A stretch of DNA of 64,000 nt from an uncultured Candidatus Saccharibacteria bacterium (GCA_964479005.1 CAYZJA010000001.1:1-64000); one strand, 5' to 3'. Positions 2,909 to 55,428 are shown, counted from the stretch's first letter. Numbers and translations are program-made. Notes: generated by a model not told the origin, from the letters alone.

Positions 2909-4567
2909 ATGTTTTTTCAGCGACGAAAATTCGTTTTCACTATTATTTTAGGAATAATATTTTTTGTCCCTGTTTTTGCTCAGGCAATTTCTGTGGGTCA
3001 AGAGCGTTCTTTTAATATTCAGTCAGATTATGATTTGTTAAGTCGTGGCAAAATAGATACTCAGTTAATAAAAATTACCAATCAATTATATTTTTATGCA
3101 GATAAACAATGGTTTAATAAACTCTCATCTGGAAATAGAACAAATATTGACAGTAAGATTTATAATTTAAGCAGTGAGTTTGAATATAGAATTTATCCAA
3201 TTTTAACTCAGACATTTAGCTTTGAAGATAATCCAGGTATAGACAATGATTCAAGAATCCTTGTGGTGTTGCATAAAATGAAAGCAGAAATTGGCGGCTA
3301 CGTTCAAACAGAAGATAATTATTCATCTCAAATTTATTCTCGTTCTAATGAAGGACAGATAATATATTTAAATGCCGATAATATTTTATCTTTACCTTCC
3401 AATAATTTAAATTATCATTTGGCTCACGAATTTATGCATTTGATTACTCTTAATCAGAATCCCAATGAAGAAACTTGGTTAAATGAAGCGCGCGCAGAAT
3501 ATACAGAAACTTTATTGAATTATGGAAAAGATTGGGCAAATAGTAATTTACAGAGAAGAGTACAGCAGTTTTTGATTAGTACGAATATTTCTTTATTAAA
3601 TTGGGATAATGCTAATTATGATTATGCTAAAGTTAATTTATTAACTCAGTATTTGGTTGAGCATTATGGTATTAGTATTTTAGTTGATTCTTTACATTCT
3701 TCTCAATCAGGAATTCCTGCCCTTGATTATGCTTTAAACAAAAATGGATTTTCTGAAGATTTTTCAGATGTTTTTATGAATTGGTTGATTACTAATGTAG
3801 TTAACGATTGTTCTCTGGGAGAAAAATACTGTTATAAAAATCCTTCTTTGCAAAATTTTACGATTTTTCCTTATAGCTATTATTTGCCTACAAGGGGGAG
3901 AGCTTCTTTATCAGTTACAGATTCTTTAAGAACTTGGAACGCAAAGTGGCAAAAGATTATTGGCGGAAGAGATATTTTAAAAATGAAATGGAAAATACCA
4001 GAGGATACTCCTATTTCTCAAGTTCCTTATGTTATAGTAAAAAATAATGAAGAAAAACAAGTTGGCTTTCTTGATTTTAAAGGAAGCAATATTGATGAAA
4101 TTTTTGTTTCAGATTTTGGAGATGAAAATATTACTTTGATTACTATTCCTTTTCTTGGGTCAACCCCTTTAGATAAACTTTATTATTTTTCCTGGGAAGC
4201 ATCAATATTAGAAAATTCAGAACAAGCTGAAGAGGAAGCAATAAAAGCCCTGCAGGCAAAAATATTTTTACTTCAACAAGAAATAGTTAAACTTCAGGCG
4301 CAACTGCTCGCTTTATCAGCAAGCCAGAATTCTTTTACCTGCTCTCCTTTTTATAGCGACCTTTATTTTGGAATGAATAGCAATCAAGTAAGTTGCTTGC
4401 AACAATATTTAAAATCTTTAGGCTCTGAGATTTATCCAGAAGGATTAGTAACAGGTTATTTTGGGTCTTTGACTCAAGCGGCAGTTAAGCGCTATCAGGC
4501 GTCGCAAAGCATTATTACTACTGGATATTTTGGACCATTAACCCGGACAGCAGTAAATAATCAATAA
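2909..4567 (+). CDS. Secreted zinc metallopeptidase-like protein (HExxH) with C-terminal peptidoglycan-binding domain
   Basis: Signal peptide, HEFMH motif followed by NEARAEY (possible gluzincin third ligand), and a coiled-coil segment. The C-terminal YFGSLTQAAVKRYQ...GYFGPLTRTAV is homologous to the PG-binding segment of the upstream surface protein. Confidence 0.65.
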   Translation: MFFQRRKFVFTIILGIIFFVPVFAQAISVGQERSFNIQSDYDLLSRGKIDTQLIKITNQLYFYADKQWFNKLSSGNRTNIDSKIYNLSSEFEYRIYPILTQTFSFEDNPGIDNDSRILVVLHKMKAEIGGYVQTEDNYSSQIYSRSNEGQIIYLNADNILSLPSNNLNYHLAHEFMHLITLNQNPNEETWLNEARAEYTETLLNYGKDWANSNLQRRVQQFLISTNISLLNWDNANYDYAKVNLLTQYLVEHYGISILVDSLHSSQSGIPALDYALNKNGFSEDFSDVFMNWLITNVVNDCSLGEKYCYKNPSLQNFTIFPYSYYLPTRGRASLSVTDSLRTWNAKWQKIIGGRDILKMKWKIPEDTPISQVPYVIVKNNEEKQVGFLDFKGSNIDEIFVSDFGDENITLITIPFLGSTPLDKLYYFSWEASILENSEQAEEEAIKALQAKIFLLQQEIVKLQAQLLALSASQNSFTCSPFYSDLYFGMNSNQVSCLQQYLKSLGSEIYPEGLVTGYFGSLTQAAVKRYQASQSIITTGYFGPLTRTAVNNQ

Positions 4568-9136: not shown

Positions 9137-12031
9137 TTATACTCCAAGTACCCTTTTTATTTCTTCCCATGAGGTAATTCCCTGTAAAACTTTAATAACA
9201 GCGCTGTTAATTAATTTTGAAAATTTTACTTTTGTAAGATCTTTTGTTTCTGAAGGCGGTATAAGTATTTCAAATATTCCTGATTGGCCTTTATATCCGG
9301 TAAATCCACATTGGGTACAACCTTGAGCTTGGTAAATCTTTGAAGGCTTCTTATATTCTGGGAAATATTTCAAAGATGGCTTAATAAATTTAGACATTTC
9401 CGATGGAATTTTTATTTCTTTTTTACAATGAGGGCAAAGGCAACGGATTAATCGTTGCGCAATAACAGTGTTAATGGCAGGCATCAATTCTTTTGAAGGA
9501 ATTTCTAAACTCTGTAAACGTGATAAAACGCCTAAAGCGTCATTTGTATGAATAGTGGACAGAACCAAATGTCCTGTTGTAGACGCCTGCCAGACTAATT
9601 TAGCTGTTTCTTTGTCCCTAATTTCTCCAATTAGGAAAATGTTAGGGTTTTGGCGAAGCAAACTGCGAAGGACTTTGGAGAAGGTATATCCTTTTTCCTC
9701 ATTAACTTGAGTTTGCATAATTCCAGACAAGCGATATTCAATAGGATCTTCAACAGTAATCACTTTTACATCTGGCTTGGCAAGTTTTTTAAGTATTGTA
9801 AATAAAGTTGTGGTTTTTCCCGAAGAAGTAGGTCCGGCAGCTAAAATTAATCCGACTTTTTTTTCTAATACTTTTTCTATTTCTTCTTCCTGTTTCTTTA
9901 AAAATCCCAAGTTTTCTAAATTTAATAAAGATTCTTCCCCGCCCAAGATTCTTAAGGAGGCGCTTTCTCCATATCCGCCTGGAATTATTGAGAGCCTGAG
10001 GTCAAAAGATTTATCAGGAAGAATAAGCCGGAATCTTCCTTCTTGAATTATCTGTGTTTCCTCTGTTTTTAAACCGCTGAGGGCTTTTAATTCATTGATT
10101 AATTTAGGGTGTTCGTTGATATCAAAAGAAACTAATTTATGGAGCACTCCGTCAATTCTTTCCCTAATTTCACTGTTTTTTTCTTCTGGTTCAAAGTGGA
10201 CATCTGTAGCTCGTGATTTTAATGCAGTAGCTAAAATAATGGCAATTTGTCTTTCAGAAGATTTATCTTTTAGTAATGGAGAAATTGATTTATTTTTTTG
10301 AAGCAATTTTTCTATTTTCTTCTCTTCTTTGCTGCTTACTTTTACGCCTCGAGTCAAAACTTGAGAAAACAATTCTTTATATAATTCCTGGATATAGGAA
10401 ATATCACCTGCCACTCTTATAACTTCTTCCAAAGAAGTAATCCCTTCAATAGTTTTTAATAAACCGTCATGAAAAAGAGGCACCATTCCTTCGTCAATGG
10501 CTTTTGATCTTATTTCATTTTGGTCAGCGTCGGATCTGATTGTTTTAATAATTCTTGGACTTATATTAAAGTATTCAAAAATTCCAATCTGGCTTTTATA
10601 TCCCAACCAATGACATTTTGCGCAACCTTTTGATTTATAAAGATAGGGAATATCTTTTGGTATTTTTACTTTGCTTTTTGGAGAAAGAATACTAAAAGCC
10701 TCAATTAATCTTTCTTCCATTTCAGAAGTTGGTTTGTATTTTTCTTTGCAATCAGGACAGAGGCGTCGAATTAATCTTTGCGCCACGACTAATTTAAGCG
10801 CATTTGGAAGCATTTGGGCGTCAGCGCCTAATTCAACCAGTCTGGCAATAGTGCCGCTGGCTTCATTGGTATGGAGTGTAGAAAAAACTAAATGCCCGGT
10901 TAAAGCAGCTTGTATAGCGGTTTTTACTGTTTCTTCATCTCTCATTTCGCCAATCATAAGGACATCAGGATCTTGCCGGAGAATTGATTTTAATCCATTA
11001 GCAAAACCATATTTTTTTGATGTCTGAGTTTGGTTTACACCAACAAGCCGATATTCAATTGGATCTTCAATCGTGATAATTTTTACTCCCGGGGAAATCT
11101 TCTTTTTTAAAAAAGCGTATAAAGTAGTTGTTTTTCCCGAGCCTGTAGGTCCTGTGATTAAAATCATTCCATTTGGCGCTGATAAAGAATGGTTAAAAAC
11201 ATCTATACTTTTTTGTCCAATACCCAAATCTTTTAAACCAAAAGCGGCTCGTTTGGGGTTTAAGAGCCTAAATACTAAAAATTCTCCATGAGGACCTGGC
11301 AAGCTGGAAGCGCGAACATCAATAAAATTTTTATTATTTTGGATAGTAAATCTGCCATTTTGGGAAACATTTTCAATATTTAATTTTAAGCCAGACAAAA
11401 GCTTTAATCTTTGGTTAATGCCGCGGTGTTTCTTTTTTTCTATTTCAGAAACATCATATAAGACACCGTCCACACGAAAACGAACAAGAGCGCAGTCTTC
11501 CTGCGGTTCAATATGAATGTCAGAGGCGTCTATTTCAACAGCTGATTTTAAAATAAGAGAGACCAATAATGTGACTTCTTCTGTGGGAAGGGGTAAAAGT
11601 TCTTGATGAAGATCGGAAAATGCTATGGATTTAGCGCTAGTTACATCTATAAAATTTGACAATTCTTTTTGATGCTCATGGACAAAAGCATAATTTTTCC
11701 ATGCCCAATTAAGGCTTTCCTCAGTAACAACAAAAACGGCAACCTTATATCTTTCTTTTTTAATTTCTTCAATTGTTTTTATTGTTTCAGTATTAAAAGG
11801 GTCTAAAACAGCTAATTTAATTTGATTTCCTATTTTTTGGAAAGCAATAATATTAGTTTTTCTTGCTTTTTCTTCTGGAATTATAGAAAGAGCGCTTGTT
11901 TCAATTGGCGCTTTTCTTAAGTCAACATAAAGAAAATTGTGTTTTTCAGCCAGCCTCTGCGCTTCTCTTTCTTTTGATTCTTGCCAAAGAGCTTTAATTT
12001 TTTCCTCTCTTTTTTTGGCGAAGTCATTCAT
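9137..12031 (-). CDS. pilB: Type IV pilus/T2SS assembly ATPase (GspE/PilB family), complete intragenic tandem duplication with two full ATPase modules
   Basis: GspE_N-like N-terminus. Module 1: Walker A GPTGSGKTT, Walker B DPDVLMIGEMRD, His box TGHLVFSTLHTN, tetracysteine CPDC...CAKC. Module 2: GPTSSGKTT, NPNIFLIGEIRD, TGHLVLSTIHTN, CPHC...CTQC. Confidence 0.85.
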   Translation of the reverse strand: MNDFAKKREEKIKALWQESKEREAQRLAEKHNFLYVDLRKAPIETSALSIIPEEKARKTNIIAFQKIGNQIKLAVLDPFNTETIKTIEEIKKERYKVAVFVVTEESLNWAWKNYAFVHEHQKELSNFIDVTSAKSIAFSDLHQELLPLPTEEVTLLVSLILKSAVEIDASDIHIEPQEDCALVRFRVDGVLYDVSEIEKKKHRGINQRLKLLSGLKLNIENVSQNGRFTIQNNKNFIDVRASSLPGPHGEFLVFRLLNPKRAAFGLKDLGIGQKSIDVFNHSLSAPNGMILITGPTGSGKTTTLYAFLKKKISPGVKIITIEDPIEYRLVGVNQTQTSKKYGFANGLKSILRQDPDVLMIGEMRDEETVKTAIQAALTGHLVFSTLHTNEASGTIARLVELGADAQMLPNALKLVVAQRLIRRLCPDCKEKYKPTSEMEERLIEAFSILSPKSKVKIPKDIPYLYKSKGCAKCHWLGYKSQIGIFEYFNISPRIIKTIRSDADQNEIRSKAIDEGMVPLFHDGLLKTIEGITSLEEVIRVAGDISYIQELYKELFSQVLTRGVKVSSKEEKKIEKLLQKNKSISPLLKDKSSERQIAIILATALKSRATDVHFEPEEKNSEIRERIDGVLHKLVSFDINEHPKLINELKALSGLKTEETQIIQEGRFRLILPDKSFDLRLSIIPGGYGESASLRILGGEESLLNLENLGFLKKQEEEIEKVLEKKVGLILAAGPTSSGKTTTLFTILKKLAKPDVKVITVEDPIEYRLSGIMQTQVNEEKGYTFSKVLRSLLRQNPNIFLIGEIRDKETAKLVWQASTTGHLVLSTIHTNDALGVLSRLQSLEIPSKELMPAINTVIAQRLIRCLCPHCKKEIKIPSEMSKFIKPSLKYFPEYKKPSKIYQAQGCTQCGFTGYKGQSGIFEILIPPSETKDLTKVKFSKLINSAVIKVLQGITSWEEIKRVLGV

Positions 12032-17806: not shown

Positions 17807-18271
17807 ATGAGTTATAAATATAAAGTTTTGCCTCATCCAGCAGATATTAGATTAGAAATAACAGCCTCTTGCAAAGAGGATCTTTTTAAAGGAGCTTTAG
17901 AAGGAATGGCTTATATTATTCAGCCAAATGTTTCTCAAAAAAGTATTTTGAAGAAAGAACAAATAGAAATTCATTCCCTTGATATTAATGCTCTCTTAGT
18001 AGATTTTTTAAATGAAGTTTTAGCAAAATCAGATATTTATAATTCTGTTTTTGATAATATAAAAATAGAAAAATTAACGGATAATTATTTCGAGCGAAGT
18101 AAGAAACAAGGTTCTGGAGCGAAGCGAACAGCTTCTTATATAAAAGGAATAATAGAAGGCAGAAATGTAAAAGAATTTTCTAAAGAAATAAAAGCCGCAA
18201 CTTATCATCAATTAAATATCAATCAAGATAAAAATGGTAATTGGAAGGCAATAATTCTTTTTGACATCTAA
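17807..18271 (+). CDS. Archease (RtcB activator)
   Basis: ADIRLEITASCKEDLFKGALEGMAYII archease N-terminal signature. Immediately upstream of rtcB. Confidence 0.75.
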   Translation: MSYKYKVLPHPADIRLEITASCKEDLFKGALEGMAYIIQPNVSQKSILKKEQIEIHSLDINALLVDFLNEVLAKSDIYNSVFDNIKIEKLTDNYFERSKKQGSGAKRTASYIKGIIEGRNVKEFSKEIKAATYHQLNINQDKNGNWKAIILFDI

Positions 18272-18276
18272 ATTTT

Positions 18277-19677
18277 ATGTTTAATAAATCTGATTTAATT
18301 AAAATAAACGATTATCTTTGGGAAATCCCAAAATCTTTTAGAAAAGATATGCTGGTTCCAGCGAGGATTTATATTACTGAAAAAATGCTAGATGAGGTAG
18401 TAAAAGATAGGAGTTTAAATCAATTGGTTAATTTAACTACCCTTCCTGGAATTGTAAAATATTCTTTAGCTATGCCGGATATCCATGAAGGGTACGGAGC
18501 ACCAATTGGCGGAGTTTTTGCCACAAAACTACCTGATGGCATAATTTCTCCCGGCTCGGTGGGCTACGATATCAACTGTGGAGTTAGATTATTAAAATCA
18601 AAACACACTGAAAAAGAAATCAGGCCCTATTTAGAAAAATTGATAGAAGAAATTTTTCATACTATTCCTTCTGGTCTTGGAAAAGGGGGAAAGTTTAAAT
18701 TAAATATTCCTGAAATGGACAGGACTTTAGAAAAAGGAATGAAGTACTTAAAGGAAAAAGGATATGCTACAGAAAAGGATATTGAATATTGTGAGTCAGG
18801 AGGATGTTTAAAAGCAGATCCTTGTTTTGTATCTGATTTGGCCAAAAAAAGAGGACGGAACCAAGTAGGAACTCTCGGATCCGGCAATCATTTCGTGGAA
18901 GTTCAGGAAGTAACTGAGGTATATGAAGAAAAATCAGCTGAGGAATTGGGTCTTAGAAAAGGGCAAGTAGTAGTTCTTATCCATACTGGTTCTCGCGGTT
19001 TAGGTCATCAAGTGGCAACAGATTATATTCGTCTTTTTATGCGAGCAATGGATAAATATAATATTTCTCTTCCTGATAGAGAATTAGCGGCAATTCCTTT
19101 TTCTACTCCCGAAGGAAAAAAATATTTCCTGGCAATGGGAGCAGCAGCCAATTTTGCCTGGTCTAATCGTCAAATGATTACTTATTTAATTAGAAATGCT
19201 TGGAAAAAAGTTCTGGGAACAAAAGAAGAATCAATAGACTTAGTTTATGATGTGGCGCACAATATTGCCAAAATAGAAGAACATGAGATAGACGAAAAGA
19301 AAATGAAATTAATTGTCCATAGGAAAGGAGCAACTCGGGCTTTTCCTAATCAGCCAGTCTTAATTCCCGGCACAATGGGAACAGCTTCTTATGTTTTAGT
19401 TGGTACTGAAAAATCAAAAGAAGCTTTTTATACTGTTTGTCATGGCGCTGGAAGGGCAATGTCCCGTCATGAAGCAAAAAGAAAAACAAGCGGCAGAGAA
19501 GTTTTACAACAACTTGCTAAAAAAGGTATAATAGTTAAGTCAGGTTCTCTTTCTGATTTGGCTGAAGAAGCCCCTTTGGCATATAAAGATGTTGATGAAG
19601 TAGTAGAAGTAGTTCATCAAGCTGGGTTAGCTAAAAAAATAGTTCAATTAAAACCTTTAGCAGTTATAAAAGGATAG
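18277..19677 (+). CDS. rtcB: RNA-splicing ligase RtcB (3'-phosphate/5'-OH RNA ligase)
   Basis: HEGYGAPIGGVFAT, GYDINCGVRL, GSGNHFVEVQ, HNIAK and CHGAGR metal/GMP-binding motifs. Confidence 0.9.
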   Translation: MFNKSDLIKINDYLWEIPKSFRKDMLVPARIYITEKMLDEVVKDRSLNQLVNLTTLPGIVKYSLAMPDIHEGYGAPIGGVFATKLPDGIISPGSVGYDINCGVRLLKSKHTEKEIRPYLEKLIEEIFHTIPSGLGKGGKFKLNIPEMDRTLEKGMKYLKEKGYATEKDIEYCESGGCLKADPCFVSDLAKKRGRNQVGTLGSGNHFVEVQEVTEVYEEKSAEELGLRKGQVVVLIHTGSRGLGHQVATDYIRLFMRAMDKYNISLPDRELAAIPFSTPEGKKYFLAMGAAANFAWSNRQMITYLIRNAWKKVLGTKEESIDLVYDVAHNIAKIEEHEIDEKKMKLIVHRKGATRAFPNQPVLIPGTMGTASYVLVGTEKSKEAFYTVCHGAGRAMSRHEAKRKTSGREVLQQLAKKGIIVKSGSLSDLAEEAPLAYKDVDEVVEVVHQAGLAKKIVQLKPLAVIKG

Positions 19678-21131: not shown

Positions 21132-21215
21132 ACGTATTATTATATCGTTAAATTGTTTTTTGCTGTTTGTTATTGTGAGCGTTAGCGAAGCAATGACATA
21201 TGTGTGGAATAAACA

Positions 21216-21248
21216 AAAAAACCACCAGTTAAAAACTGATGGTTTTTT
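21216..21248 (+). terminator. Rho-independent terminator after the permease gene
   Basis: CCACCAGTTaaaaACTGATGG stem followed by TTTTTT. Confidence 0.7.
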
Positions 21249-21332
21249 GATATATTATATTGTGATATAATTAAAATATGTTTGCTTTAAACTAAGTAAA
21301 TATATTTTAATTTCAACGTTCTTAAGCGAAGA

Positions 21333-21440
21333 CACGTTAAACGTGGCGAAGCGAGAGGTTGTTATAATTTTATTATGAAGATTATTTCGAATAAAGTGAG
21401 AAACAAGGTTCTGCCGAACAAAGTGAGGAAGGTTCTTATT
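21333..21440 (+). promoter_or_regulatory. Composite upstream element: CACGTTAAACGTG palindrome, GGCGAAGCGAGAGGTTGTTATAAT (TGnTATAAT-like -10), then two tandem GTGAGRAACAAGGTTCT units ending AGGTTCTTAT
   Basis: Read directly from the sequence. Related copies lie upstream of rpoB (35645-35685) and lepB (47390-47427). The TATAAT at 21363-21368 sits 6 nt before the annotated ATG at 21375, so the mRNA may be leaderless or the start may be downstream. Confidence 0.5.
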
Positions 21441-22673
21441 GCTGATTTTCACATTCATTCCAAATATTCGCGGGCTACTGCTCGTGATATGGATTTGGAA
21501 CATATTTTTCAGTCAGCGCAGGAAAAAGGAATTACCGTCGTTGGTACAGGTGATTTTACTCATCCAGAGTGGTTTAATGAGATTAAAAATAAATTAGAGC
21601 CGGTAGAGGAAGGGCTGTATAAACTAAAAAATAAAGATGATAGCGTAAGATTTGTTATAACAGGTGAGATAAGTAATATGTATACGAGACATGGAAGAGG
21701 CAGGAGAATTCATAATCTTATTATTTTACCCTCTTTGGAATCAGCAGAGAAAATAAATAAAATTTTATCATGGCAGGGGAATTTGAAATCAGATGGACGC
21801 CCTATTCTGGGAATGGATTCAGAAGAACTTTTAAAAATTGTTATTGACGCCGATTCAAACGCTTTATTTGTGCCGGCTCATTGCATGACCCCATGGTTTG
21901 GTGTATTTGGTTCAATGTCTGGTTTTGATTCTTTAGAAGAAGCTTTTGGAGAAAATACTAAATATATTTATGCAATGGAAACAGGTTTAAGCGCAAGTCC
22001 TGATATGCTTTGGAGAATGGCTGATGGCCGTAAAATGACTTTAATAAGTAATTCTGATGCGCATTCTCCCCGTAATTTAGGCAGGGAAGTGAATGTTTTT
22101 GATACAGAATTGAGTTATTCTGCTATGAGAGACGCTATTATTAAAAAAGATAAATCAAAATTTTTATATACAATTGAATTTTTTCCACAAGAAGGAAAAT
22201 ATCATTATGATGGGCATCGTTTGTGTAAAGTGAGTATGTCGCCAGAACAAAGGAAGGAGGTAAAAGGAATTTGCCCTAAATGCGGCCGTAAGCTCACAGT
22301 AGGTGTTTTGTCCAGGGTTGATGAATTAGCTGATAGAAAGGATGGTTTTGTGCCTCCTGGCGCTATTCCTTATAAAAGCCTGGTTCCATTAAAAGAAATT
22401 ATTGCTGAAGCTATAGGCATAGGGCCCCAAACAAAGGGTGTAGAGGAGCAATATCAAACATTAATTCAGAAATTTTCCAATGAATTTAATATTTTATTAG
22501 ATGTTCCATTAGAAGAATTGGATAAATTTACTTTGCCTAAAATTGCACAAGGCATACAAAGAGTAAGAGATGGTAAATTAATAATTGAGCCTGGTTATGA
22601 TGGTGAATTTGGTAAAGTTAAAATTTTTTATGAAGCTGAAAAAAATGAACTTAAACAAGATAAACTTTTCTAA
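21375..22673 (+). CDS. endoQ: Endonuclease Q (PHP-domain endonuclease for deaminated/abasic DNA) homolog
   Basis: Motif-by-motif match to archaeal EndoQ: DFHIHS, GTGDFTHPEW, LIILPSL, SDGRPILG, LSASPDM, SNSDAHSPRNLGREVNVF, GKYHYDGHRLC, Zn finger CPKCGRK, VPLKEIIAEA, KLIIEPGYDGEFG. The exact start codon is uncertain. Confidence 0.8.
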   Translation: MKIISNKVRNKVLPNKVRKVLIADFHIHSKYSRATARDMDLEHIFQSAQEKGITVVGTGDFTHPEWFNEIKNKLEPVEEGLYKLKNKDDSVRFVITGEISNMYTRHGRGRRIHNLIILPSLESAEKINKILSWQGNLKSDGRPILGMDSEELLKIVIDADSNALFVPAHCMTPWFGVFGSMSGFDSLEEAFGENTKYIYAMETGLSASPDMLWRMADGRKMTLISNSDAHSPRNLGREVNVFDTELSYSAMRDAIIKKDKSKFLYTIEFFPQEGKYHYDGHRLCKVSMSPEQRKEVKGICPKCGRKLTVGVLSRVDELADRKDGFVPPGAIPYKSLVPLKEIIAEAIGIGPQTKGVEEQYQTLIQKFSNEFNILLDVPLEELDKFTLPKIAQGIQRVRDGKLIIEPGYDGEFGKVKIFYEAEKNELKQDKLF

Positions 22674-22682
22674 TTTCTTAAT

Positions 22683-23030
22683 ATGGAGAAAACATTGATT
22701 GGGTATCTTTTAAAACAAATTGGTTTTTACTGTTCTGATTTTATCAGGGCTTACTTTAAAGGTGGCTACAGTTTCTTTTTTAGAATTTATCAATATCATT
22801 TTTCAAAATTGGAACGTAACACAGGTTTCATAGTTAATATTCGTTATTTTACCATTCCGCTTTGGCAGCAATATTCTTTTGCCTCTTATCTTATAAGTAT
22901 TCCCTATAGAATAACAAGAATTATTTTAGGGGCAGTGCTTTTAATAATTTTAACCCTGTTCTTTTCGGCAATTTATCTTTGTTGGATATTTTTGCCTGTT
23001 TACCTTATTCTAAAAACCATTTCACCATGA
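22683..23030 (+). CDS. Small hypothetical membrane protein (2 predicted TM helices)
   Basis: Hydrophobic C-terminal half. Stop overlaps the next gene's start (ATGA at 23027). Confidence 0.4.
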   Translation: MEKTLIGYLLKQIGFYCSDFIRAYFKGGYSFFFRIYQYHFSKLERNTGFIVNIRYFTIPLWQQYSFASYLISIPYRITRIILGAVLLIILTLFFSAIYLCWIFLPVYLILKTISP

Positions 23031-25585
23031 TGAAAAAAGAGACAAAACAAAAGAAGGTTGAGCAAAAATCAGGGGAGAAAACTGAGTTATTTTTCTCTGA
23101 TGCCTTCTTCTTTTGGCCTACATGGCAAAGATTTTTTTATAAAGTAATTCTTACTGTTTTTATTTCTTTAGGATTGATATTTTCTTTTTTCTTGGTGGTT
23201 CTTCGCATACAACCATGGTACAACTTAGGCATTCTTGTTTTATTGTTTTTCATCTACGTTCTTTTTAAACAAAATCTTTCAGATTTGCCTTTAGCAGAAA
23301 AATATTTTAAACAGAAAAAGATTAATTTAGCTCGTTTTCTTTCTCCACAAGCCAAAAATGTCCTTATTGAAGCAAGAGACGTTTCTTTTACTTTTCAACT
23401 TGATTTTTTTCAAGGAATTCTTTATGTCCTTCTTTCCCAAAGAGAGATAATTGATGCATTAGATATATTAGACATATCTTCAGAGGAGATAGAAGAGTTA
23501 AAGAAAAGAATAAAAGAAGAAAAAGCGGGTAAAAAAGAAATTACAAAAGAAAATTATCAAAAATTTTTAGAACAAATTACTTACTGGGCTTTTTTTGAAG
23601 CCAAGAAATTAAAGAAAAACTCTATAAACCCTGAATCCTTACTATTAGCTCTTTATTCTATTGGTAATTCTAAAATTTCTGATGCTTTTAATTTTTATCG
23701 TTTGGAAAAAAATGATTTGGCTGTAGCGTTTGTTTTGAATTATCTTTCGCGAATAAAAGGCATAGAAGTTCTAAAAGGATTAGCTGACAAAAGACAATTT
23801 AGCTTTCGGTTAAAAAGAGTAAAAGTTAATCGTTCTTTTACGTCCCGCCCTACACCATTCTTGGATTTATATGGCTTGGATTTTACTGAGCTGGCTTTAA
23901 AGCTAAAAATAGGCATTATGATAGGCCATGAGCAGGAATACCAAAGCCTTTTAGATATCTTGTGCCGCGAAGGCAGAAGAAATATCCTTTTAGTTGGACC
24001 AGCTGGCGTAGGAAAAGATACGTTAGTTTCCTATCTGGCTTTTAATTTAGTCAGAGATAAATCTCCTTTAAAATTACGGGATCGCCGCCTCATCAGCCTT
24101 TCCATCTCTTCTATTTTAGAGGATACAAAAGAGCCATTAGAGGTTTATAACCGTTTAACAAAGATTACAAAAGAGCTTTTAATTAACAGGGATATAATTA
24201 TTTATCTGCCACAATTTCATAATTATAAATTATTGGCTCAAAAAGGAGGATTTACCGCTTTAGAAGTTTTCCAATCACTAATAAATGCTTCATGGGTGCC
24301 TGTGATTGCGGCAACGACTCCTGCAGACTATCAACGTTATTTAGAACGAGATCCGATTGTGAAAGAGAATTTTGAAATCATTAAAGTAAAAGAGCTTTCT
24401 TCTGAAGAATCAATAAGGTTTTTAGCTTATCGTTCTTTGGAACTAAAAAGAAAAACCAAAGTAAAAATCAGTTACAAAGCCATTAAGAGAGCTGTAATTT
24501 TAGCTCAACGTTTTCTGACTTCAACTCCTTTGCCGTCTTCTGCAGAATCTCTTTTGACTGAAGCTATTGAAGGGGTTCGCAGAAAAGGCGGAAAAATAGT
24601 TTTAGAACAAGATATAGTTGATTTGGTAAGCTTAAAAACCCAAGTACCTTTAGAGGTTTCTTCTGAGCAGGAAAGGGAAAAATTATTGAATTTAGAAAAA
24701 CTTATTCATGAACGCTTAATTAATCAGGAAAAAGCAGTAAGTTTAGTATCTGCCGCTTTAAGACAATATAGGGCTGGTTTAACAAATGTTAAAAAACCAA
24801 TCGGTGTTTTTCTTTTTGTTGGGCCTACTGGAGTAGGTAAGACCCAATTAGCAAAAACATTGGCTAAAATTTATTTTGGAAGTGAAAAAACTATGATTCG
24901 TTTTGATATGGCAGAATATCAGGATAGAAAAAGCATTAATCGTTTTATTGGCAATCCTGAGGGAACAATGAGCGGATCTTTGACTGAAGCAGTAAAGAAT
25001 AAGCCTTTTTCCTTGATTCTTTTAGATGAATTTGAAAAAGCCCATTCAGATGTTTTAAATATTTTTCTTCCTGTTTTTGACGAAGGGAGATTGACTGATA
25101 ATCTCGGGCAAGTTATTGATTTTACTAATGCAATCATTATTGCGACTTCTAATGCTTTATCTGATTTTATAAAAAACGAAATAGAAAAGAATGTTGATAT
25201 TGACGATTTATCAGAAAGATTAAAAAAGAAATTAACGAATTACTTTAAGCCAGAGCTTTTGAACAGGTTTAACGAAGTTGTTGTTTTTAGGCCGTTAACT
25301 CAAGAGCACCTTAAAGAGATAGTAAAATTAAAATTAAATGAATTAGCATCTGCTTTATCAAAGAATAAAAAAATAGAATTATCTTTTGATAATTCTGTTA
25401 TTGAACGATTGGCTAAATTAGGCTATAACCCAATATTTGGAGCTCGGCCCTTAGATTCAGTAATCAGGCATTACATAAAAGATAATTTAGCCAGTTCCAT
25501 TCTAAGAAAGAAAATTAGTCCAAATACCAAGGTACATTTTACTTTAGAAGAAAACGAGTTTAAAGCGAGGATTGAATCTATTTAA
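23027..25585 (+). CDS. Membrane-anchored Clp/Hsp100-family AAA+ protein with degenerate D1 and intact D2 ATPase domains
   Basis: Start set at the ATGATG at 23027 (ATGA coupling). Two N-terminal TM helices, then two Clp_N-like repeats. D1 Walker A is GPAGVGKD (T to D) and D1 Walker B is IIIYLPQFH (no DE). D2 has [19 protein letters not shown] and ATSN. Confidence 0.75.
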   Translation: MMKKETKQKKVEQKSGEKTELFFSDAFFFWPTWQRFFYKVILTVFISLGLIFSFFLVVLRIQPWYNLGILVLLFFIYVLFKQNLSDLPLAEKYFKQKKINLARFLSPQAKNVLIEARDVSFTFQLDFFQGILYVLLSQREIIDALDILDISSEEIEELKKRIKEEKAGKKEITKENYQKFLEQITYWAFFEAKKLKKNSINPESLLLALYSIGNSKISDAFNFYRLEKNDLAVAFVLNYLSRIKGIEVLKGLADKRQFSFRLKRVKVNRSFTSRPTPFLDLYGLDFTELALKLKIGIMIGHEQEYQSLLDILCREGRRNILLVGPAGVGKDTLVSYLAFNLVRDKSPLKLRDRRLISLSISSILEDTKEPLEVYNRLTKITKELLINRDIIIYLPQFHNYKLLAQKGGFTALEVFQSLINASWVPVIAATTPADYQRYLERDPIVKENFEIIKVKELSSEESIRFLAYRSLELKRKTKVKISYKAIKRAVILAQRFLTSTPLPSSAESLLTEAIEGVRRKGGKIVLEQDIVDLVSLKTQVPLEVSSEQEREKLLNLEKLIHERLINQEKAVSLVSAALRQYRAGLTNVKKPIGVFLFVGPTGVGKTQLAKTLAKIYFGSEKTMIRFDMAEYQDRKSINRFIGNPEGTMSGSLTEAVKNKPFSLILLDEFEKAHSDVLNIFLPVFDEGRLTDNLGQVIDFTNAIIIATSNALSDFIKNEIEKNVDIDDLSERLKKKLTNYFKPELLNRFNEVVVFRPLTQEHLKEIVKLKLNELASALSKNKKIELSFDNSVIERLAKLGYNPIFGARPLDSVIRHYIKDNLASSILRKKISPNTKVHFTLEENEFKARIESI

Positions 25586-26609: not shown

Positions 26610-26645
26610 GTTTTATAAAAAGATTAATTGTTTAAGATATTTTAG

Positions 26646-27023
26646 TGGAGAAGGTGGGAGTTGAACCCACGTCTAAAAAGAATTTTTTAAATAATTCTAC
26701 GAGTGTAGTTCATTCTTTGTATCTCTTAAGAAAAGAAAGAATGAACAGACTTTTCTTAAAATTCTCCGAAAATAGTTCAATTGATTTTTGGTCGGAAAAG
26801 CCAGAAACCAATCTATCTCGAGGTTTATATCCTTTGGGGCTATCGAGAATCATCCCAAAGAATTTCCCTTAAAAAGGAATGGCTTAGCCTAAACGATTAA
26901 GCATAGGCATAAGCAGGAGTTTGATTGGCATTTATTGATGCCGCCTTGATTTTTATTGAGGGTACAAGACATCCTCAACTCGCTTATTTAAAAACTCTCT
27001 TTTTATCGAATCCCGTCATCCCC
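26646..27023 (-). ncRNA. ssrA: tmRNA (SsrA), standard one-piece form; predicted tag ANQTPAYAYA
   Basis: 5' end GGGGAUGACGGGAUUCGA... 3' end ...GACGUGGGUUCAACUCCCACCUUCUCCA (T-arm plus acceptor, CCA not encoded) closely matches the E. coli tmRNA 3' end. Internal reading frame GCC AAU CAA ACU CCU GCU UAU GCC UAU GCU UAA. Adjacent to smpB. Confidence 0.8.
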
Positions 27024-27035
27024 ATAACTGCATTA

Positions 27036-27485
27036 TCAAATTTCTCCTCTTTTAGCTCTATCTATTTTTCTTCTACTTTCTTTTTTCTTTATACTTTCTC
27101 TTTTATCAAATTTCTTTTTTCCTTTTGCTAATCCTAATTCTATCTTGATTAAACCGTGTTTATTATACATTCTTAGTGGTATTAAAGTCAAGTTTTTTTG
27201 TTTAATCTTACCTAATAGATGTGCTATTTGTTTTTTATTGAAAAGGAGTTTTCTGGTTCTGTCAGGATTGTAAATAAAATGAATATTTTTTGGCTGGTAA
27301 GGCGCAATAGAGCAATTTACAAGAGAAACTCTGTTATCCCTGATAATAGCAAAGCTGCCTGCTAAGTTAGCTTTTCCTGTTTTTACTGCCTTTGTTTCCA
27401 TTCCAGATAATACAATTCCTGCTTCTATTCTTTCTAGAATTTCATAATTAAAATATGCCTTTTTGTTTGTAGCTAAGGGTTTCAT
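27036..27485 (-). CDS. smpB: SsrA-binding protein SmpB
   Basis: KKAYFNYEILERIEAGIVLSGMETKA...GKANLAGSFA... canonical SmpB with basic C-terminal tail. Confidence 0.9.
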   Translation of the reverse strand: MKPLATNKKAYFNYEILERIEAGIVLSGMETKAVKTGKANLAGSFAIIRDNRVSLVNCSIAPYQPKNIHFIYNPDRTRKLLFNKKQIAHLLGKIKQKNLTLIPLRMYNKHGLIKIELGLAKGKKKFDKRESIKKKESRRKIDRAKRGEI

Positions 27486-42547: not shown

Positions 42548-45181
42548 GTGCCTTTAGGAAGATTTACAGCAAAAGCTCAAGCGGCGATAGAAAGGGCTCA
42601 GCAAATGGCTATGGAAAGAAACCAGGGAGAGATGCGCGCTCTCCATCTTTTGTATGTTTTGTTGGACGAAGAAGGGTCTGGCCCAAGGGAGATTTTAGAA
42701 AAAGAATTAAAAATTAATGTAGAAAAATTCTTAAAGAAGATATTAGAGGAAATTGTTAAATTACCGCGCATCTTTTCTGTTGGCAAGGGTTTTGGTCCAA
42801 TGTATCTTTCTCAGGAAATGTTGCAAATTATAGAAGTTACCGCTAAAAAAGCGATGGAGGAAAAAAATGAATTTATTTCCCCAGAATATTTATTTTATGG
42901 CATACTTGCTTCTAAAAATTCTGCGCAGGAATTAATAAGCGAATTTAATATTAGCAAGGAAGAGTTTTTAAAAGCTCTTCATCATTATACAGCTGGTGAA
43001 AAAATTACTGATGAATTTCAAGAAGTTGGCGCTAATGCTATAGAAAAATATACCCAAGATCTTACTGAATTAGCAAGAGAGAATAAATTGGACCCAGTGA
43101 TAGAAAGGGAGGAAGAATTACGGCGAGTTATGCAGATATTGTCACGCAGGACAAAAAATAACCCAATATTAATGGGTGAAGCAGGTGTAGGAAAAACCGC
43201 TATTGTAGAAGGATTGGCTCAACGTATTGCTTCTTCCGAAGTTCCGGAAAGTTTAATTGATAAAAAAATTATATCATTAGATTTAGGGGCATTAATAGCC
43301 GGGACCCGTTTTAGAGGGGAGTTTGAAGAACGATTAAAAAATCTTCTTAAAGAAATAAAAAAGGCCGGTAATATTATAATTTTCATTGACGAAATTCATA
43401 CATTGGTAGGAGCAGGAGCGGCTGAAGGAGCTATTGACGCTTCTAATTTATTAAAACCCGCATTAGCCAGAGGTGAATTGCGGGCTATTGGAGCGGCAAC
43501 TTTTAAAGATTATCGTGAATATATTGAAAAAGACCCGGCTTTAGAAAGACGTTTTCAGCCAGTATTAGTAGAAGAACCTTCAATTGAAGAAGCAATTGAG
43601 ATTTTACGGGGATTAAAATCAAAATATGAAGCTCATCATGGATTAAAGATATCTGATCAAGCAATTATAATGGGAGTACAATTATCCAGCCGTTATATTA
43701 CCTCCCGTTTTTTGCCTGATAAAGCCATAGATTTAATGGATGAAGCCGCTTCATCAATGAGCTTGGATATTGGTAGCATTCCTTTGCCCATCTCTGAATT
43801 AGAAGCCAAAATAAAATCTCTGGAACTGCAAAAAGAGGCAAGCAAAAAGGAAATACGGGAAGGTAAAAAAATAACGCAAGATAGAAGAAGAATCGGAAAC
43901 GAGTTGAAGAAATTAAAACAAAAATATAATAAGATAAAAAGTAAATGGCAGAAGGAAAAAGAAATATTTAACGAAGTGAGCGCCATTAAAAAAGAAATAG
44001 AGGAATTAGAAAAAAATTCGCAAGAATTTGAGAGGACTGGGCAATTAGATAAAGTTGCGGAAATAATTTATGGTAAAATTCCCCAATTAAAAAAAACATT
44101 AAGATTCAATGGAAAGTCTTTGAGTAAAATTTCCGAAGAAGAAAGGTTTTTAAAAGATGAGGTAACAGCTGAAGATATCGCCCGCGTAGTTTCCCGATGG
44201 ACTGGAATTCCTGTAACAAGAATGCTTGAAGAGGAAAGCAAAAAATTAGTGAGAATGGAGAAAGACTTAAGCAAAAGAGTTGTGGGGCAAAAAGAGGCTA
44301 TTTTTGCGGTAAGCAGGGCTATTAGAAGAGCCCGCGCAGGAATATCAGAAGAAGACAGACCCATAGGTTCTTTTATGTTTTTGGGGCCAACTGGAGTGGG
44401 AAAAACAGAGCTTGCTAGGGCTTTGGCAGAATTTATGTTTTCTAATGAAAAAGCAATGATTCGTATAGATATGTCCGAGTATATGGAAAAACATAGTGTT
44501 GCCCGTTTAATTGGTTCTCCTCCTGGATATGTTGGTTATGAAGAAGGGGGGCAATTAACAGAAGCAATAAAACATCGCCCATATAGCCTGATTTTGTTTG
44601 ATGAAATAGAAAAGGCCAATCCAGAGGTATTTAATATTCTTCTTCAAATATTAGATAATGGCCGTCTTACTGACGGTAAGGGTCGGGCAGTGAATTTTAA
44701 AAACACAATTATTATTATGACCTCTAACTTGGGCGGGGAATATTTACAGGAAATGGTTTCTTTGGGATTTGTTGCGAATAAAAAGAATAAGGTGGAACAA
44801 CAGAAAGAGGAATTAAAAAATAAAATTCATGATGCTTTAAGGGAAAAATTCCGTCCAGAATTTCTTAATCGTGTTGATGAAATTGTCATTTTTAATACTT
44901 TAAGCATTCGGAGCATAGAAAAAATTGTGGATTTGCAAATAAATATAATTAATCATCGGTTAGTTGATAAGAAGATTGCTTTAAAATTAAGCAAAGAGGC
45001 AAAGAAATATTTAGCTCAAAAAGGTTATAATCCTAATTATGGCGCACGACCGTTAAAAAGACTTATTGAAAAAGAAGTCCTTGATCCTTTAGCTGATGAA
45101 ATTATCAAAGGCAAAATAAAAGAAGGAAACAAAATTACCGTTTCTTTCAAGAAAAATACTCTGAATTTATGCAAAAAATAA
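42548..45181 (+). CDS. clpB: Chaperone ClpB (Hsp100 disaggregase) with middle coiled-coil domain
   Basis: Clp_N repeats. D1 GEAGVGKT / IIFIDEIH. M-domain coiled coil. D2 GPTGVGKT / [10 protein letters not shown]. Confidence 0.9.
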
Positions 45182-52544: not shown

Positions 52545-52592
52545 AATCAAGAACCAAATAACAATTAACATTTTTGTTAGCTGTTAGTTGTT
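52545..52592 (+). promoter_or_regulatory. ATAACAAT/TAACA block plus the inverted 19-mer TTGTTAGCTGTTAGTTGTT, 26-44 nt upstream of the nrdD start
   Basis: Exact reverse complement of 30498-30516. Confidence 0.45.
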
Positions 52593-52617
52593 CATTCTTA
52601 ATTTATATTTTATTTGT

Positions 52618-54729
52618 ATGTCCCCAAAAAGAAAATTTCATAATCATATAAAGCAAGTAGAAAAAAGAACAGGGGATATTGTTCTTTTTGATAAAAAGAA
52701 GATTGAGGAAGTTGTTTACAAAGCTTTAACAGCCACTGATGAAGGTGGTAAAGTTTTATCACGGCAATTATGCACTCGTGTAATAAAAATTTTAAACAGG
52801 AGATTTAAAAAAGAAGAAATTCCTACTGTAGAACAGATTCAGGATATTGTTGAAGAGGTTTTCATTTTAGAGAATTTGGTGGAAACAACAAAAGCTTATA
52901 TTTTATACCGTGAGCAGCGCAAGAAAATAAGAGAGAGTCGCATTGTTTCCGAAGAAGCAATAAGTTTAGTGGATGAATACTTGAAAGAAAAAGATTGGGA
53001 GGTAAAAGAAAATAGCAATATGGCTTTTTCTTTGCAGGGATTAAATCATTATGTTGCTGCTTATGTGGCAAAAAAATATTGGTTAAGGAAAATTTATCCG
53101 CCAGAAATTAGGGAAGCAGCTGAAACAGGCGATTTTCATATTCATAATTTGGATATTTTAGCTACTTATTGCTGCGGTTGGGATTTATATGATCTTTTGT
53201 TAAAAGGATTTGGCGGGGTTTTTGGCAAGATACAATCCAAACCTGCAAAACATTTTCGTCCTGCTTTAGGCCAAATAGTTAATTTTTTCTATACATTACA
53301 GGGAGAAGGGGCTGGTGCTCAGGCTTTTTCTAATTTTGACACTTTGTTAGCGCCTTTTATTCGTTATGATGATTTAAATTATAATGAGGTAAAACAATCC
53401 TTGCAGGAGTTTCTTTTTAATTGCAATGTTCCGACTAGGGTAGGGTTCCAAACTCCATTTGAAAACATTACATTGGATTTGAAAGTTCCAAATCATTTCA
53501 AAGACTTGCCTGTGATAATTGGCGGTCAGTCCCAGAAGGAAACTTATAAAGAGTTTCAGAAAGAAATGGATATGCTTAATCAGGCGCTTTGTGAGGTTTA
53601 TGTAGATGGTGACGCCAGTGGCAGAGTTTTTACTTTTCCCATTCCCACATATAACATTACTAAAGATTTTGATTGGAATAATCCAATTTATGATGGAATT
53701 TGGAAGATGACGGCAAAGTATGGCATTCCATATTTCTCAAATTTTATTAATTCTGATATGAGTCCTGACGATTCACGTTCAATGTGCTGCCGACTCAGGC
53801 TGGATAACAGAGAGCTTTATAAACGCGGGGGAGGATTGTTCGGAGCAGCGCCCTTAACAGGAAGTATTGGCGTAATAACCATTAATATGCCTCGCTTAGC
53901 ATATTTATCAAAAACAAAAAAAGAATTTTTCCAAAGATTAGCTGATTTAATGGATTTAGCAAAGGTTAGTTTAGAAATAAAAAGGAAAGTTTTGGAAGAT
54001 TGGACAGACAAGGGGCTTTATCCTTATGCGCAACATTATTTAGATGGAGTAAAAAAGATGAGGGGTTATTATTGGGGCAATCATTTTTCCACTATCGGAT
54101 TGATTGGAATGAATGAAGCTTTGCTTAATTTTTTGGGAATAAATATTGCAAATAAGAAGGGCATAGAATTTACTTTAGAAGTATTAGATTTTATGCGCGA
54201 TAAATTAGTAGAATATCAGGAAGAAACTGGAAATATGTATAATTTGGAAGCTACTCCTGCTGAAGGGACATCTTATCGTTTGGCGCTAAAAGACAAGAAA
54301 AAATATCCTGATATTATTACTGCAGGGGAAAAAGAACCTTATTATACCAATTCCACCCAATTGCCTGTAAATTATACAGATGATTTATTTGAAGCTTTGA
54401 AATTGCAGGATGAATTACAAACAAAATATACTGGCGGTACGGTATTTCATGCTTTTTTAGGGGAGGCAGTGTCTAATTCTGAATCAGTAAAATCTTTAAT
54501 TAAGATTGTTTTTGAAAAATTCCGTTTGCCGTATTTTACTCTTACGCCTACTTTTTCTGTTTGTCCTATTCATGGATATATAGCAGGGGAACATTTTATT
54601 TGTCCAAAATGCACAATAGAACAAACTTGCGAGGTTTATTCCAGAATTGTCGGATATTTGCGTCCTGTACAACAATGGCATAAAGGAAAACAAGAAGAAT
54701 TTGGAGAACGTTCCACCTTTAAAATATAA
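52618..54729 (+). CDS. nrdD: Anaerobic ribonucleoside-triphosphate reductase (class III RNR) with N-terminal ATP-cone
   Basis: ATP-cone KRTGDIVLFDKKKIEE...; glycyl-radical motif SRIVGYLRPV near the C-terminus; Zn ribbon CPIHG...CPKC. Start set at the ATG at 52618 (MSPKRK). Confidence 0.88.
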   Translation: MSPKRKFHNHIKQVEKRTGDIVLFDKKKIEEVVYKALTATDEGGKVLSRQLCTRVIKILNRRFKKEEIPTVEQIQDIVEEVFILENLVETTKAYILYREQRKKIRESRIVSEEAISLVDEYLKEKDWEVKENSNMAFSLQGLNHYVAAYVAKKYWLRKIYPPEIREAAETGDFHIHNLDILATYCCGWDLYDLLLKGFGGVFGKIQSKPAKHFRPALGQIVNFFYTLQGEGAGAQAFSNFDTLLAPFIRYDDLNYNEVKQSLQEFLFNCNVPTRVGFQTPFENITLDLKVPNHFKDLPVIIGGQSQKETYKEFQKEMDMLNQALCEVYVDGDASGRVFTFPIPTYNITKDFDWNNPIYDGIWKMTAKYGIPYFSNFINSDMSPDDSRSMCCRLRLDNRELYKRGGGLFGAAPLTGSIGVITINMPRLAYLSKTKKEFFQRLADLMDLAKVSLEIKRKVLEDWTDKGLYPYAQHYLDGVKKMRGYYWGNHFSTIGLIGMNEALLNFLGINIANKKGIEFTLEVLDFMRDKLVEYQEETGNMYNLEATPAEGTSYRLALKDKKKYPDIITAGEKEPYYTNSTQLPVNYTDDLFEALKLQDELQTKYTGGTVFHAFLGEAVSNSESVKSLIKIVFEKFRLPYFTLTPTFSVCPIHGYIAGEHFICPKCTIEQTCEVYSRIVGYLRPVQQWHKGKQEEFGERSTFKI

Positions 54730-54732
54730 ATT

Positions 54733-55428
54733 ATGTTGTTTGGCGGTCTACAAAAAACAACTTTAGTTGATTATCCGGGGAAAGTGGCAGCTACTGTTTT
54801 CGCTGTTGGCTGTAATTTTCGTTGTCCATATTGTCATAATCCAGAATTAGTTTTACCAGAATTAATAAAAAAACAGCCAAAAATTACAGAAAAAGAAATT
54901 CTTGATTTTTTAAAAGAACGCCAGAAATTATTAGAAGGATTATGTATTACTGGAGGAGAACCCACTATTCAACCTGATTTAATTGATTTTATAAAAAAAG
55001 TAAAGGATTTGGGTTTTTTGATAAAATTAGACACGAATGGTTCTTGCCCAGATGTTTTAAATAGTTTAATCGAGGAAAAGTTAATAGACTATGTGGCAAT
55101 GGATATAAAAGCGCCGAAAGAAAAATATGAAATTTTTAGTGAAGATGAGAAGATTATAGAAAAAGTTAATAAAAGTATTGAATTATTAAAGAAAGATAAA
55201 ATTGATTATGGATTTAGAACAACTTTGGTGTCTGATATTTTAGATGAGCAGGATATTTTGGCCATTGTTAATTGGATAAAATTCGCTCCTCATTATTATC
55301 TTCAGCGTTTTCAAAAAGGCAAGGTTTTGGATGAGAAATTTCAAAATGCCCAACCGTGGTCAGAACAAAGAACAAAGCAACTATTAAAAAAAATAAAACC
55401 GTATTTTTCCAAATGTAGTATAAGATGA
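54733..55428 (+). CDS. nrdG: Anaerobic RNR activating enzyme (radical SAM)
   Basis: CNFRCPYCHNPE CxxxCxxC cluster motif and a G-rich SAM motif. Confidence 0.88.
   Translation: MLFGGLQKTTLVDYPGKVAATVFAVGCNFRCPYCHNPELVLPELIKKQPKITEKEILDFLKERQKLLEGLCITGGEPTIQPDLIDFIKKVKDLGFLIKLDTNGSCPDVLNSLIEEKLIDYVAMDIKAPKEKYEIFSEDEKIIEKVNKSIELLKKDKIDYGFRTTLVSDILDEQDILAIVNWIKFAPHYYLQRFQKGKVLDEKFQNAQPWSEQRTKQLLKKIKPYFSKCSIR

Follow-up and report, generated by a model that had tools for sequence, protein, structure and literature searches.

What does a Clp-type ATPase do when it is tethered to the membrane and the catalytic residues of its first ATPase domain are gone, and why does its gene stand behind that of a DNA repair nuclease? 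These questions are raised by a locus in a 64,000-nucleotide stretch of DNA, hereafter called the window, from an uncultured Candidatus Saccharibacteria bacterium (GCA_964479005.1, CAYZJA010000001.1:1-64000; GC content about 32%). The three open reading frames (ORFs) that a preliminary description of the sequence had placed at 21375-25585 are all present at these coordinates on the plus strand. The first, endoQ (21375-22673, 432 aa), codes for a homolog of endonuclease Q (EndoQ), a nuclease of the PHP fold that has a zinc-binding domain and is predicted to act on deaminated bases; the second (22683-23030, 115 aa) codes for a small membrane protein belonging to no Pfam family; and the third (23027-25585, 852 aa from the ATG at 23027) codes for a membrane-anchored Clp/Hsp100 paralog, which we call TM-Clp. 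The small gene and the TM-Clp gene overlap by ATGA (23027-23030), as had been described, and endoQ is separated from the small gene by 9 nt instead of the 10 nt given in that description. With moderate confidence, we propose that the small protein and TM-Clp form a two-subunit membrane AAA+ remodeller that is derived from ClpC, driven by its second ATPase domain (D2), non-threading and specific to Parcubacteria, and that its link to EndoQ is one of synteny or co-regulation. The anatomy of TM-Clp itself is firmly established.

Anatomy of TM-Clp

TM-Clp matched the Pfam families AAA_2 (E=2.4e-52) and ClpB_D2-small (E=9e-23), and its first ATPase domain (D1) aligned to the D1 of both ClpB and ClpC. 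The protein has the two-ring architecture of class I Clp/Hsp100 proteins, with tandem AAA+ modules of which the second is an AAA_2-type D2 followed by ClpB_D2-small. Its scores against the curated models were 448 bits for ClpB (TIGR03346, cutoff 1232 bits) and 408 bits for ClpA (TIGR02639, cutoff 993 bits). A homolog search with residues 1-545 as the query delimited a family of 71 clusters, 812-855 aa in length (plus two shorter partials), with scores of at least 254 bits and identities of 32-100%; a 381-aa fragment (P0072) scored 191 bits, and below the family the scores fell to 130 bits, where ordinary ClpC and ClpB proteins begin. All of the relatives that bear names are Patescibacteria of the Parcubacteria/Paceibacteria type. 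They are labelled in the databases as 'ATP-dependent Clp protease ATP-binding subunit', 'ClpC' or 'AAA family ATPase', and full-text literature searches directed at the family yielded no account of it.

The N-terminal transmembrane hairpin of TM-Clp (23120-23272, plus strand; residues 32-82) was recognised by hydropathy, by the family alignment, in which every member has it, and by an AlphaFold2 model, in which its helices span residues 32-58 and 65-82 with a predicted local distance difference test score (pLDDT) of 82-90. The two N-terminal transmembrane helices reported before are thus borne out by three kinds of evidence. Next to the membrane, the Clp carries the motif F-x-D-x-x-F-x-W-P-x-W-x-R-F. 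The hairpin is followed by a divergent Clp_N-like N-domain (23327-23752, plus strand; residues 101-242), which the model folds into 4+4 helices at 107-164 and 174-242, and then by a disordered linker at 246-267; the pLDDT of the whole model is 82.9. The two Clp_N-like repeats that had been claimed agree with these 4+4 helices, and the sequence supports them weakly: hhalign gave a weak match to the ClpB N-domain, in register (probability 41%, E=2.8e-4), and no Pfam match to Clp_N at E<=0.01 was obtained for TM-Clp within the 25 families matched most. Foldseek searches with the model returned ClpC protomers from active hexamers as the closest structures, with ClpB also among the top matches. The D1-D2 core aligned with the ClpC protomers at a TM-score of 0.9 (normalised by target length) and a root-mean-square deviation of about 3 Å over about 580 columns.

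The state of the two ATPase domains was determined by aligning family members column by column with ClpB and ClpC references and by a motif census of 56 sequences of the TM-Clp family. The D1 Walker A motif in the window reads GPAGVGKD (23996-24019, plus strand; 24 nt); at its last position the census gave GKE in 31 sequences, GKS in 11, GKD in 10 and GKT in 2. The D1 Walker B motif reads IIIYLPQFH (24194-24220, plus strand), with Pro in place of Asp, a replacement found in 53 of 55 family members. Lost as well are the D1 arginine fingers (ERRFQ in the references, ENFE in the window) and the D1 pore loop, which is KYRGEF in the references and reads KEPLEV here. Since the same states are conserved in the relatives, the changes must have evolved in this family, and sequencing errors are ruled out as their source; the degeneracy of Walker A and B noted in the preliminary description is a property kept family-wide. 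The mean pairwise identity within the family is 0.70 for D2 (D2 large), 0.46-0.51 for D1 and 0.29 for the N-domain and transmembrane region. From the value for D1 we concluded that this domain is retained under constraint and is not decaying; judged by its motifs, it is a conserved scaffold that is predicted to be catalytically dead. Taken with the transmembrane evidence, the census upholds the earlier view of TM-Clp as a non-canonical, membrane-tethered Hsp100 with a pseudo-ATPase D1.

D2 had been called fully intact, which proved right for its ATPase elements and wrong for its pore loop. Walker A (GPTGVGKT, 24821-24844), Walker B (LLDEFEKA, 25019-25042), the arginine finger R747 in LLNRFN (25256-25273) and sensor-2 (GARPL, 25439-25453), all on the plus strand, are intact, as is sensor-1 (TSN), and these elements are invariant or nearly so in the family, R747 being invariant. 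The pore-loop-1 segment, GNPEGTMSGS (24950-24979, plus strand), has a 4-residue deletion relative to ClpB that removes the aromatic of GYVG. In the family this segment follows the pattern G-x-P-(E/D)-G-x-x-x-G and is hypervariable, with 45 different sequences among the 56 and an aromatic residue in 3 of the 56, at non-conserved positions. Two further modules are missing. The coiled-coil M-domain, which couples ClpB to DnaK, is wholly absent and appears as a gap against the ClpB and ClpC references. The ClpP-docking (I/L)G(F/L) loop, for which a check had been recommended, is absent from all of the family members aligned with the ClpC references.

Hsp100/Clp ATPases are textbook threading machines, and TM-Clp might be a divergent but conventional one, that is, a membrane-tethered unfoldase or disaggregase for membrane-protein quality control, which threads its substrates by means of non-aromatic D2 loops, uses the small protein as an adaptor or receptor and does a job like that of Msp1, or of FtsH minus the protease. 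The complete catalytic set of D2, which is the best-conserved domain, the superposition of the protomer on substrate-bound ClpC and ClpB protomers, the Clp_N-like N-domain, the membrane anchoring and the occurrence of ClpP and HSP20 genes nearby in a few loci would all suit such a role. We nevertheless regard it as rather doubtful, in view of the loss of both pore-loop-1 aromatics, the hypervariability of the D2 loop, which in a natural fusion protein described below (P0392) is deleted, and the presence of a canonical ClpB in the same genome. The quality-control reading of the preliminary description is weakened by the loss of both aromatic pore loops.

The ClpB in question is encoded at 42548-45181 (plus strand), about 17 kb from TM-Clp and directly after rpoB and rpoC. 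It is near-canonical, matching TIGR03346 over its full length with 1154 bits, and has a Clp_N domain, intact D1 Walker A (GEAGVGKT) and Walker B (IIIFIDEIH) motifs and the D2 pore loop GYVGYEEGG. Its presence in the window rules out that TM-Clp is the only Hsp100 of the lineage, and we concluded from it that TM-Clp is a second, specialised Hsp100 paralog and not the housekeeping disaggregase.

The small membrane protein and its pairing with TM-Clp

The small protein had no match in Pfam, NCBIfam or PADLOC. A profile search covering 1.84 billion representative proteins (clusters at 50% identity) assigned at least 529 members to its family at E<=1e-3, nearly all with lengths of 100-125 aa; the partner carries the database label 'hypothetical protein'. 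F20, P59, R76 and W101 are invariant in this family, and Y98 and P105 are near-invariant. The AlphaFold2 model (pLDDT 91.8) consists of two helices, 5-47 and 66-113, which are joined by the conserved loop P-L-Y/W-Q-D/Q-Y-S (P-L-Y-Q-D-Y-S in the window); when compared with the PDB by Foldseek, it gave only helical-hairpin noise at E>1. Of the two transmembrane helices attributed to this protein before, one stands: a single clear hydrophobic span at about 77-110, in the second helix. The first helix is long and amphipathic, with a conserved Arg/His stripe, and is not a classical transmembrane helix.

The comparison of gene order covered the window and, besides 32 species-level genome loci, 8 metagenomic loci and a JGI locus without DNA. 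The region upstream of Clp was assessable in 41 loci, and two, one at a contig end (L012) and one with a gene fusion (L039), stand outside this count. The small gene lies directly 5' of the Clp gene in 40 of the 41, the exception being L028, and the distance between the two genes varies between an 11-nt overlap and some tens of nucleotides, with a 4-nt overlap being common and a gap of 74 nt in L033. In 22 of the 41, the gene directly 5' of the small gene is endoQ. The three-gene arrangement reported for the window is therefore a conserved one and not a one-off; its conserved core is the small gene with Clp.

In L039 the two proteins are naturally fused. The fusion gene (L039 723-3272) codes for P0392 (849 aa), of which residues 10-103 match the small-protein family (hhalign probability 98%, E=1.6e-13; library-wide hmmsearch E=4.3e-13). 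This domain is followed by a transmembrane segment, and the remainder is 37% identical to the Clp of the window over 578 aligned columns; as noted, the D2 pore loop is deleted, and here it is deleted altogether. A fragment, P0368, is colinear with residues 4-182 of P0392. The neighbours of the fusion gene are a glycosyltransferase gene and a peptide-release-factor gene, with no repair genes among them. The conserved adjacency, the translational coupling and the fusion together are strong evidence that the small protein and TM-Clp act as one unit.

In six loci belonging to one clade (L013, L014, L018, L021, L027 and L032), the genes appeared to be broken by in-frame TGA codons under translation table 11. 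In L018, the TGAs of the small gene coincide with columns in which Trp is conserved, that of the invariant W101 among them, and the hidden Markov model scores rise under table 4. We rejected the possibility that these genes are pseudogenes; the positions of the TGAs suggest that UGA is recoded to Trp in this Parcubacteria clade.

EndoQ and the neighbouring genes

The product of endoQ aligned over its full length with the EndoQ of Pyrococcus furiosus (PDB 5zb8/7k30; E=1.5e-62, residues 21-424 against 3-389). The metal and catalytic residues of EndoQ are H8, H10, E76, H84, R114, H139, W144, D193 and H195, and the list of functional residues also includes T142, E167, L168, G169, L170 and N191 (PMC5961232). 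In the alignment to 5zb8, every listed metal-binding, catalytic and base-pocket residue is kept in the window except L168, which is replaced by Thr. The zinc-binding domain has His instead of Cys as the first of its four ligands (HRLC...CPKC), giving H-C-C-C; this His would still serve as a zinc ligand, so we count the domain as one of the C4 type. The alignment and the kept catalytic residues confirm that the protein is a clear EndoQ homolog, and its TIGR00375 score (203 bits, against a curated cutoff of 326.6) marks it as a divergent member of the family. On sequence grounds it is predicted to act as an endonuclease for deaminated bases, and as an EndoQ it would cut on the 5' side of dU, dI or AP sites. 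Since its first 20 aa are not conserved among homologs, the true start of endoQ may lie further downstream. With the EndoQ proteins of P. furiosus, B. pumilus and B. subtilis it shares homology over the full length and the PHP metal, catalytic and base-pocket residues; it differs from them in the first zinc ligand and in its TIGR00375 score below the cutoff, and it comes from the Patescibacteria, which are not among the few bacterial lineages that PMC5961232 notes.

Other DNA repair genes were found on both sides of the small gene-Clp pair. A gene of the UDG superfamily (PF03167) occupies the endoQ slot in five loci (L017, L019, L029, L034 and L035) and lies two genes upstream in one further locus, and no locus has both EndoQ and UDG at the upstream slot. 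The remaining loci have other genes in this slot. A PolX gene (HHH_8, thumb and PHP domains) stands 3' of Clp in nine loci (L015-17, L023, L030, L033, L035, L037 and L038) and overlaps or nearly abuts the Clp stop in four. Downstream of Clp there is also a NUDIX gene in 15 of the DNA-bearing loci and a PF01035 (MGMT-type) gene in 6, and the JGI locus without DNA has both. Next after the repair genes comes a convergent rplT-infC-smpB block. On a neighbour-joining tree of Clp, EndoQ-linked loci are present in all four major clades and UDG-linked loci appear at two to four places; from this distribution it is likely that the ancestral order was EndoQ - small - Clp - PolX - NUDIX - MGMT-like, and that in-place swaps of EndoQ for UDG and losses followed. 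The PolX, NUDIX and MGMT genes are lost from the locus in the lineage of the window, and none was found elsewhere within the 64 kb. The linkage to repair genes is old, recurrent and conserved, and so is more than the incidental packing of one genome, a possibility that the preliminary description had left standing.

In a few loci the neighbours are chaperone or protease genes. A ClpP gene and a 2-hydroxyacid dehydrogenase gene lie directly 5' of the small gene in three loci (L015 5463-6083, L036 5401-5985 and L038 5337-5924), and in L037 an HSP20 gene is divergently adjacent.

Such a recurrence of repair genes might mean that the pair works with EndoQ or UDG, PolX, NUDIX and the MGMT-like protein, as a membrane-anchored ATPase, in the repair of DNA bases or in DNA scavenging, with a role in processing damaged DNA taken up by the competence machinery or in removing stalled or cross-linked repair proteins, in very small cells. 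The spread of upstream EndoQ over all four major clades, the replacement of EndoQ by UDG in the same slot, the closeness of PolX to the Clp stop and the frequency of NUDIX and MGMT-like genes are in its favour. So are the ComEC and pilus ATPase genes in the window, competence genes being part of the core in Parcubacteria (PMC4508563). However, sequence comparison detected no DNA-binding motif or basic pore loops in either Clp or the small protein; the syntenic block also holds RNA-repair, permease and translation genes and so looks like inherited synteny; the window lineage does without PolX, NUDIX and MGMT at this locus; the fusion locus has no repair neighbours; and the loci are phylogenetically non-independent. 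Because of the mixed gene content, this non-independence and the fusion locus, we kept a coupling to DNA repair as a minority hypothesis, which we think unlikely, and we read the linkage of endoQ as shared regulation or as synteny of maintenance genes. Somewhat less probable again is the specific form of this hypothesis, in which the small protein and TM-Clp would be a membrane ring ATPase in a Parcubacteria pathway for deaminated or alkylated bases, formed with EndoQ or UDG, PolX, NUDIX and the MGMT-like protein. Were it true, the ATPase could, for example, couple DNA uptake and scavenging at the membrane to the sanitation of damaged DNA, or extract repair proteins trapped on DNA, and such a role has never been described for an Hsp100.

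It had also been suggested that the locus is a defence-like module. The D2 region of TM-Clp does match the PADLOC models DolB (E=1.5e-35) and PDC-M37B, but these matches cover the generic ClpB-type D2 only, and EndoQ and the small protein are without any PADLOC match. Moreover, the pair keeps the same place within a syntenic block of housekeeping genes in many orders, which is the opposite of a variable defence island. An anti-phage or accessory mobile module is therefore very improbable.

The limits of the transcription unit could be proposed from its surroundings. A terminator-like hairpin at 21208-21256 (an inverted repeat with 23-nt arms, forming a 15-pair stem followed by a T-run) sits between endoQ and an upstream operon of archease, rtcB, a small EF-Tu-domain gene and a permease gene, and is likely to be the 5' boundary; at the other end, the Clp stop overlaps the convergent rplT. 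No promoter above chance was found between endoQ, the small gene and Clp (12 promoter-like sites, against 18.4 expected). Given the hairpin upstream, the convergent gene downstream and the lack of an above-chance internal promoter, it is simplest to suppose that the three genes are carried on one transcript.

Just 5' of endoQ there is a further inverted repeat (21269-21312; 19-nt arms, 89% complementary, 6-nt spacer), which could be an operator. It showed no alignable conservation among the relatives examined, and the intergenic region 5' of endoQ as a whole gave no useful alignment among relatives. No CIRCE heat-shock operator was found within the window. In L008 (about 3900-3990) and L009 (about 4190-4270), a tRNA-like sequence recognised by eye lies between the permease gene and endoQ; with it, endoQ-small-clp would there form a unit of its own. 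The archease-RtcB RNA-ligase pair (17807-19677, plus strand) is upstream in the same syntenic block as the endoQ unit, and its arrangement next to the EF-Tu-domain gene and the permease gene is kept in many relatives. The Rfam scan of the locus detected only the neighbouring tmRNA gene (26643-27023, minus strand; RF00023, 134 bits), which lies between infC and smpB and explains the spurious ORFs 26645-26872 and 26925-27131.

Elsewhere in the window, a gene at 9137-12031 (minus strand) codes for an ATPase of the T2SSE/PilB type, 964 aa long, in which two ATPase stretches were matched and which also contains an MshEN domain; it resembles a pilus or secretion ATPase that arose by tandem duplication or fusion. 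Genes for a competence channel of the ComEC type (55425-56819, plus strand) and for an anaerobic ribonucleotide reductase, NrdD (52588-54729, plus strand), fit a lifestyle of DNA and nucleotide scavenging.

Known AAA+ systems and the proposed function

Among the known Clp proteins, ClpC (of B. subtilis and S. aureus, and ClpC1 of M. tuberculosis) is the best structural match to TM-Clp, and the two share two AAA+ modules, a TPxLD-type motif before D1, here SRPTPFLD, and, going by the model of TM-Clp, an eight-helix N-domain. TM-Clp differs from ClpC in having no (L/I)GF loop, no M-domain, a D1 that is predicted to be dead and no aromatic pore loops, and in having gained the N-terminal transmembrane hairpin and a small membrane partner. 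Its likeness to ClpB/Hsp104 consists in a D2 of AAA_2 plus ClpB_D2-small without a ClpP loop, and ClpB is its best NCBIfam match (448 bits); but this score is far below the 1232-bit cutoff, and TM-Clp is anchored in the membrane and lacks both the M-domain and the pore-loop tyrosines. FtsH, Msp1/ATAD1 and Bcs1 belong to the classical AAA clade; each has one ATPase ring, the pore loops of which are aromatic, and FtsH carries a protease besides. TM-Clp, by contrast, is of the Hsp100 type, with two tiers and without aromatic loops. The feature it has in common with them is an N-terminal transmembrane anchor that puts the AAA+ ring at the membrane (compare PMC7949044 and PMC12793716).

Torsin, of the eukaryotic endoplasmic reticulum and nuclear envelope, is a Clp-related, membrane-associated protein that has no aromatic pore loops, works with a membrane-anchored cofactor, LAP1/LULL1, and is paired with a degenerate AAA+ fold (PMC5425593). 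TM-Clp resembles it in having a Clp-type module with a C-terminal helix bundle, in its membrane association, in the lack of aromatic loops and in the possession of a membrane partner. There are three differences. The degenerate AAA+ fold, namely D1, is inside the same polypeptide; D2 keeps its own arginine finger, R747, and so does not fit the Torsin manner of activation; and the partner is a helical protein of about 115 aa without an AAA+ fold. Homology between the two systems extends to the level of the Clp clade. As an analogy, the Torsin/cofactor system would be the nearest functional parallel to the small protein and TM-Clp, nearer than ClpB, ClpC or ClpA.

We propose that TM-Clp is a ClpC-derived Hsp100 paralog held at the membrane by its hairpin, that the small protein of about 115 aa would be its obligate partner subunit, and that the pair is restricted, within the sampling so far, to Parcubacteria/Paceibacteria-type Patescibacteria. 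TM-Clp would form a ring with D2 as its sole motor, which is probable because the trans-acting arginine finger and all of the D2 catalytic residues are kept and the protomer resembles that of hexameric ClpC. With no ClpP loop, it is not expected to be a protease partner and would hand no substrates to ClpP; with no M-domain, it is not expected to be a DnaK-coupled disaggregase and would take none from DnaK by that route. Processive threading appears unlikely, since neither pore-loop aromatic is present and the D2 loop is hypervariable and, in P0392, missing. Most probably, TM-Clp would instead be a non-processive remodeller or switch acting on a membrane-proximal client, which would be held by the Clp_N-like domain together with the small subunit. 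The genes would belong to a cluster of ancient origin in the Parcubacteria, (EndoQ or UDG) - small - TM-Clp - (PolX) - NUDIX - (MGMT-like), in which EndoQ is probably co-transcribed with the pair.

Several points weigh against this proposal. Some AAA+ motors grip their substrates by means of non-aromatic loops; D2 has an arginine finger of its own, unlike Torsin; and the Clp_N-like N-domain fits ordinary binding of substrates or adaptors. In the lineage of P0392, D1 has intact Walker A (GCGKT) and Walker B (FVDEVH) motifs, so a dead D1 is not universal. Finally, the pair is flanked again and again, upstream and downstream, by repair genes of unrelated fold (EndoQ, UDG, PolX, NUDIX and MGMT-like), and EndoQ and UDG replace each other in one slot. 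Drift alone would hardly lead us to expect as much, and a functional tie to DNA maintenance keeps some weight.

The TM-Clp subfamily is conserved across many orders and is kept, beside a normal ClpB, in genomes of about 0.5 Mb. The comparison also defines at least 529 uncharacterised small membrane proteins as a family through their partner, and it flags a conserved cluster of repair genes in organisms that are usually called poor in DNA repair, as the Parcubacteria have been described (PMC4508563). If the proposed function is true, the pair would be a bacterial counterpart to the Torsin puzzle, that is, the question of what a Clp-type ring does when it is unable to thread.

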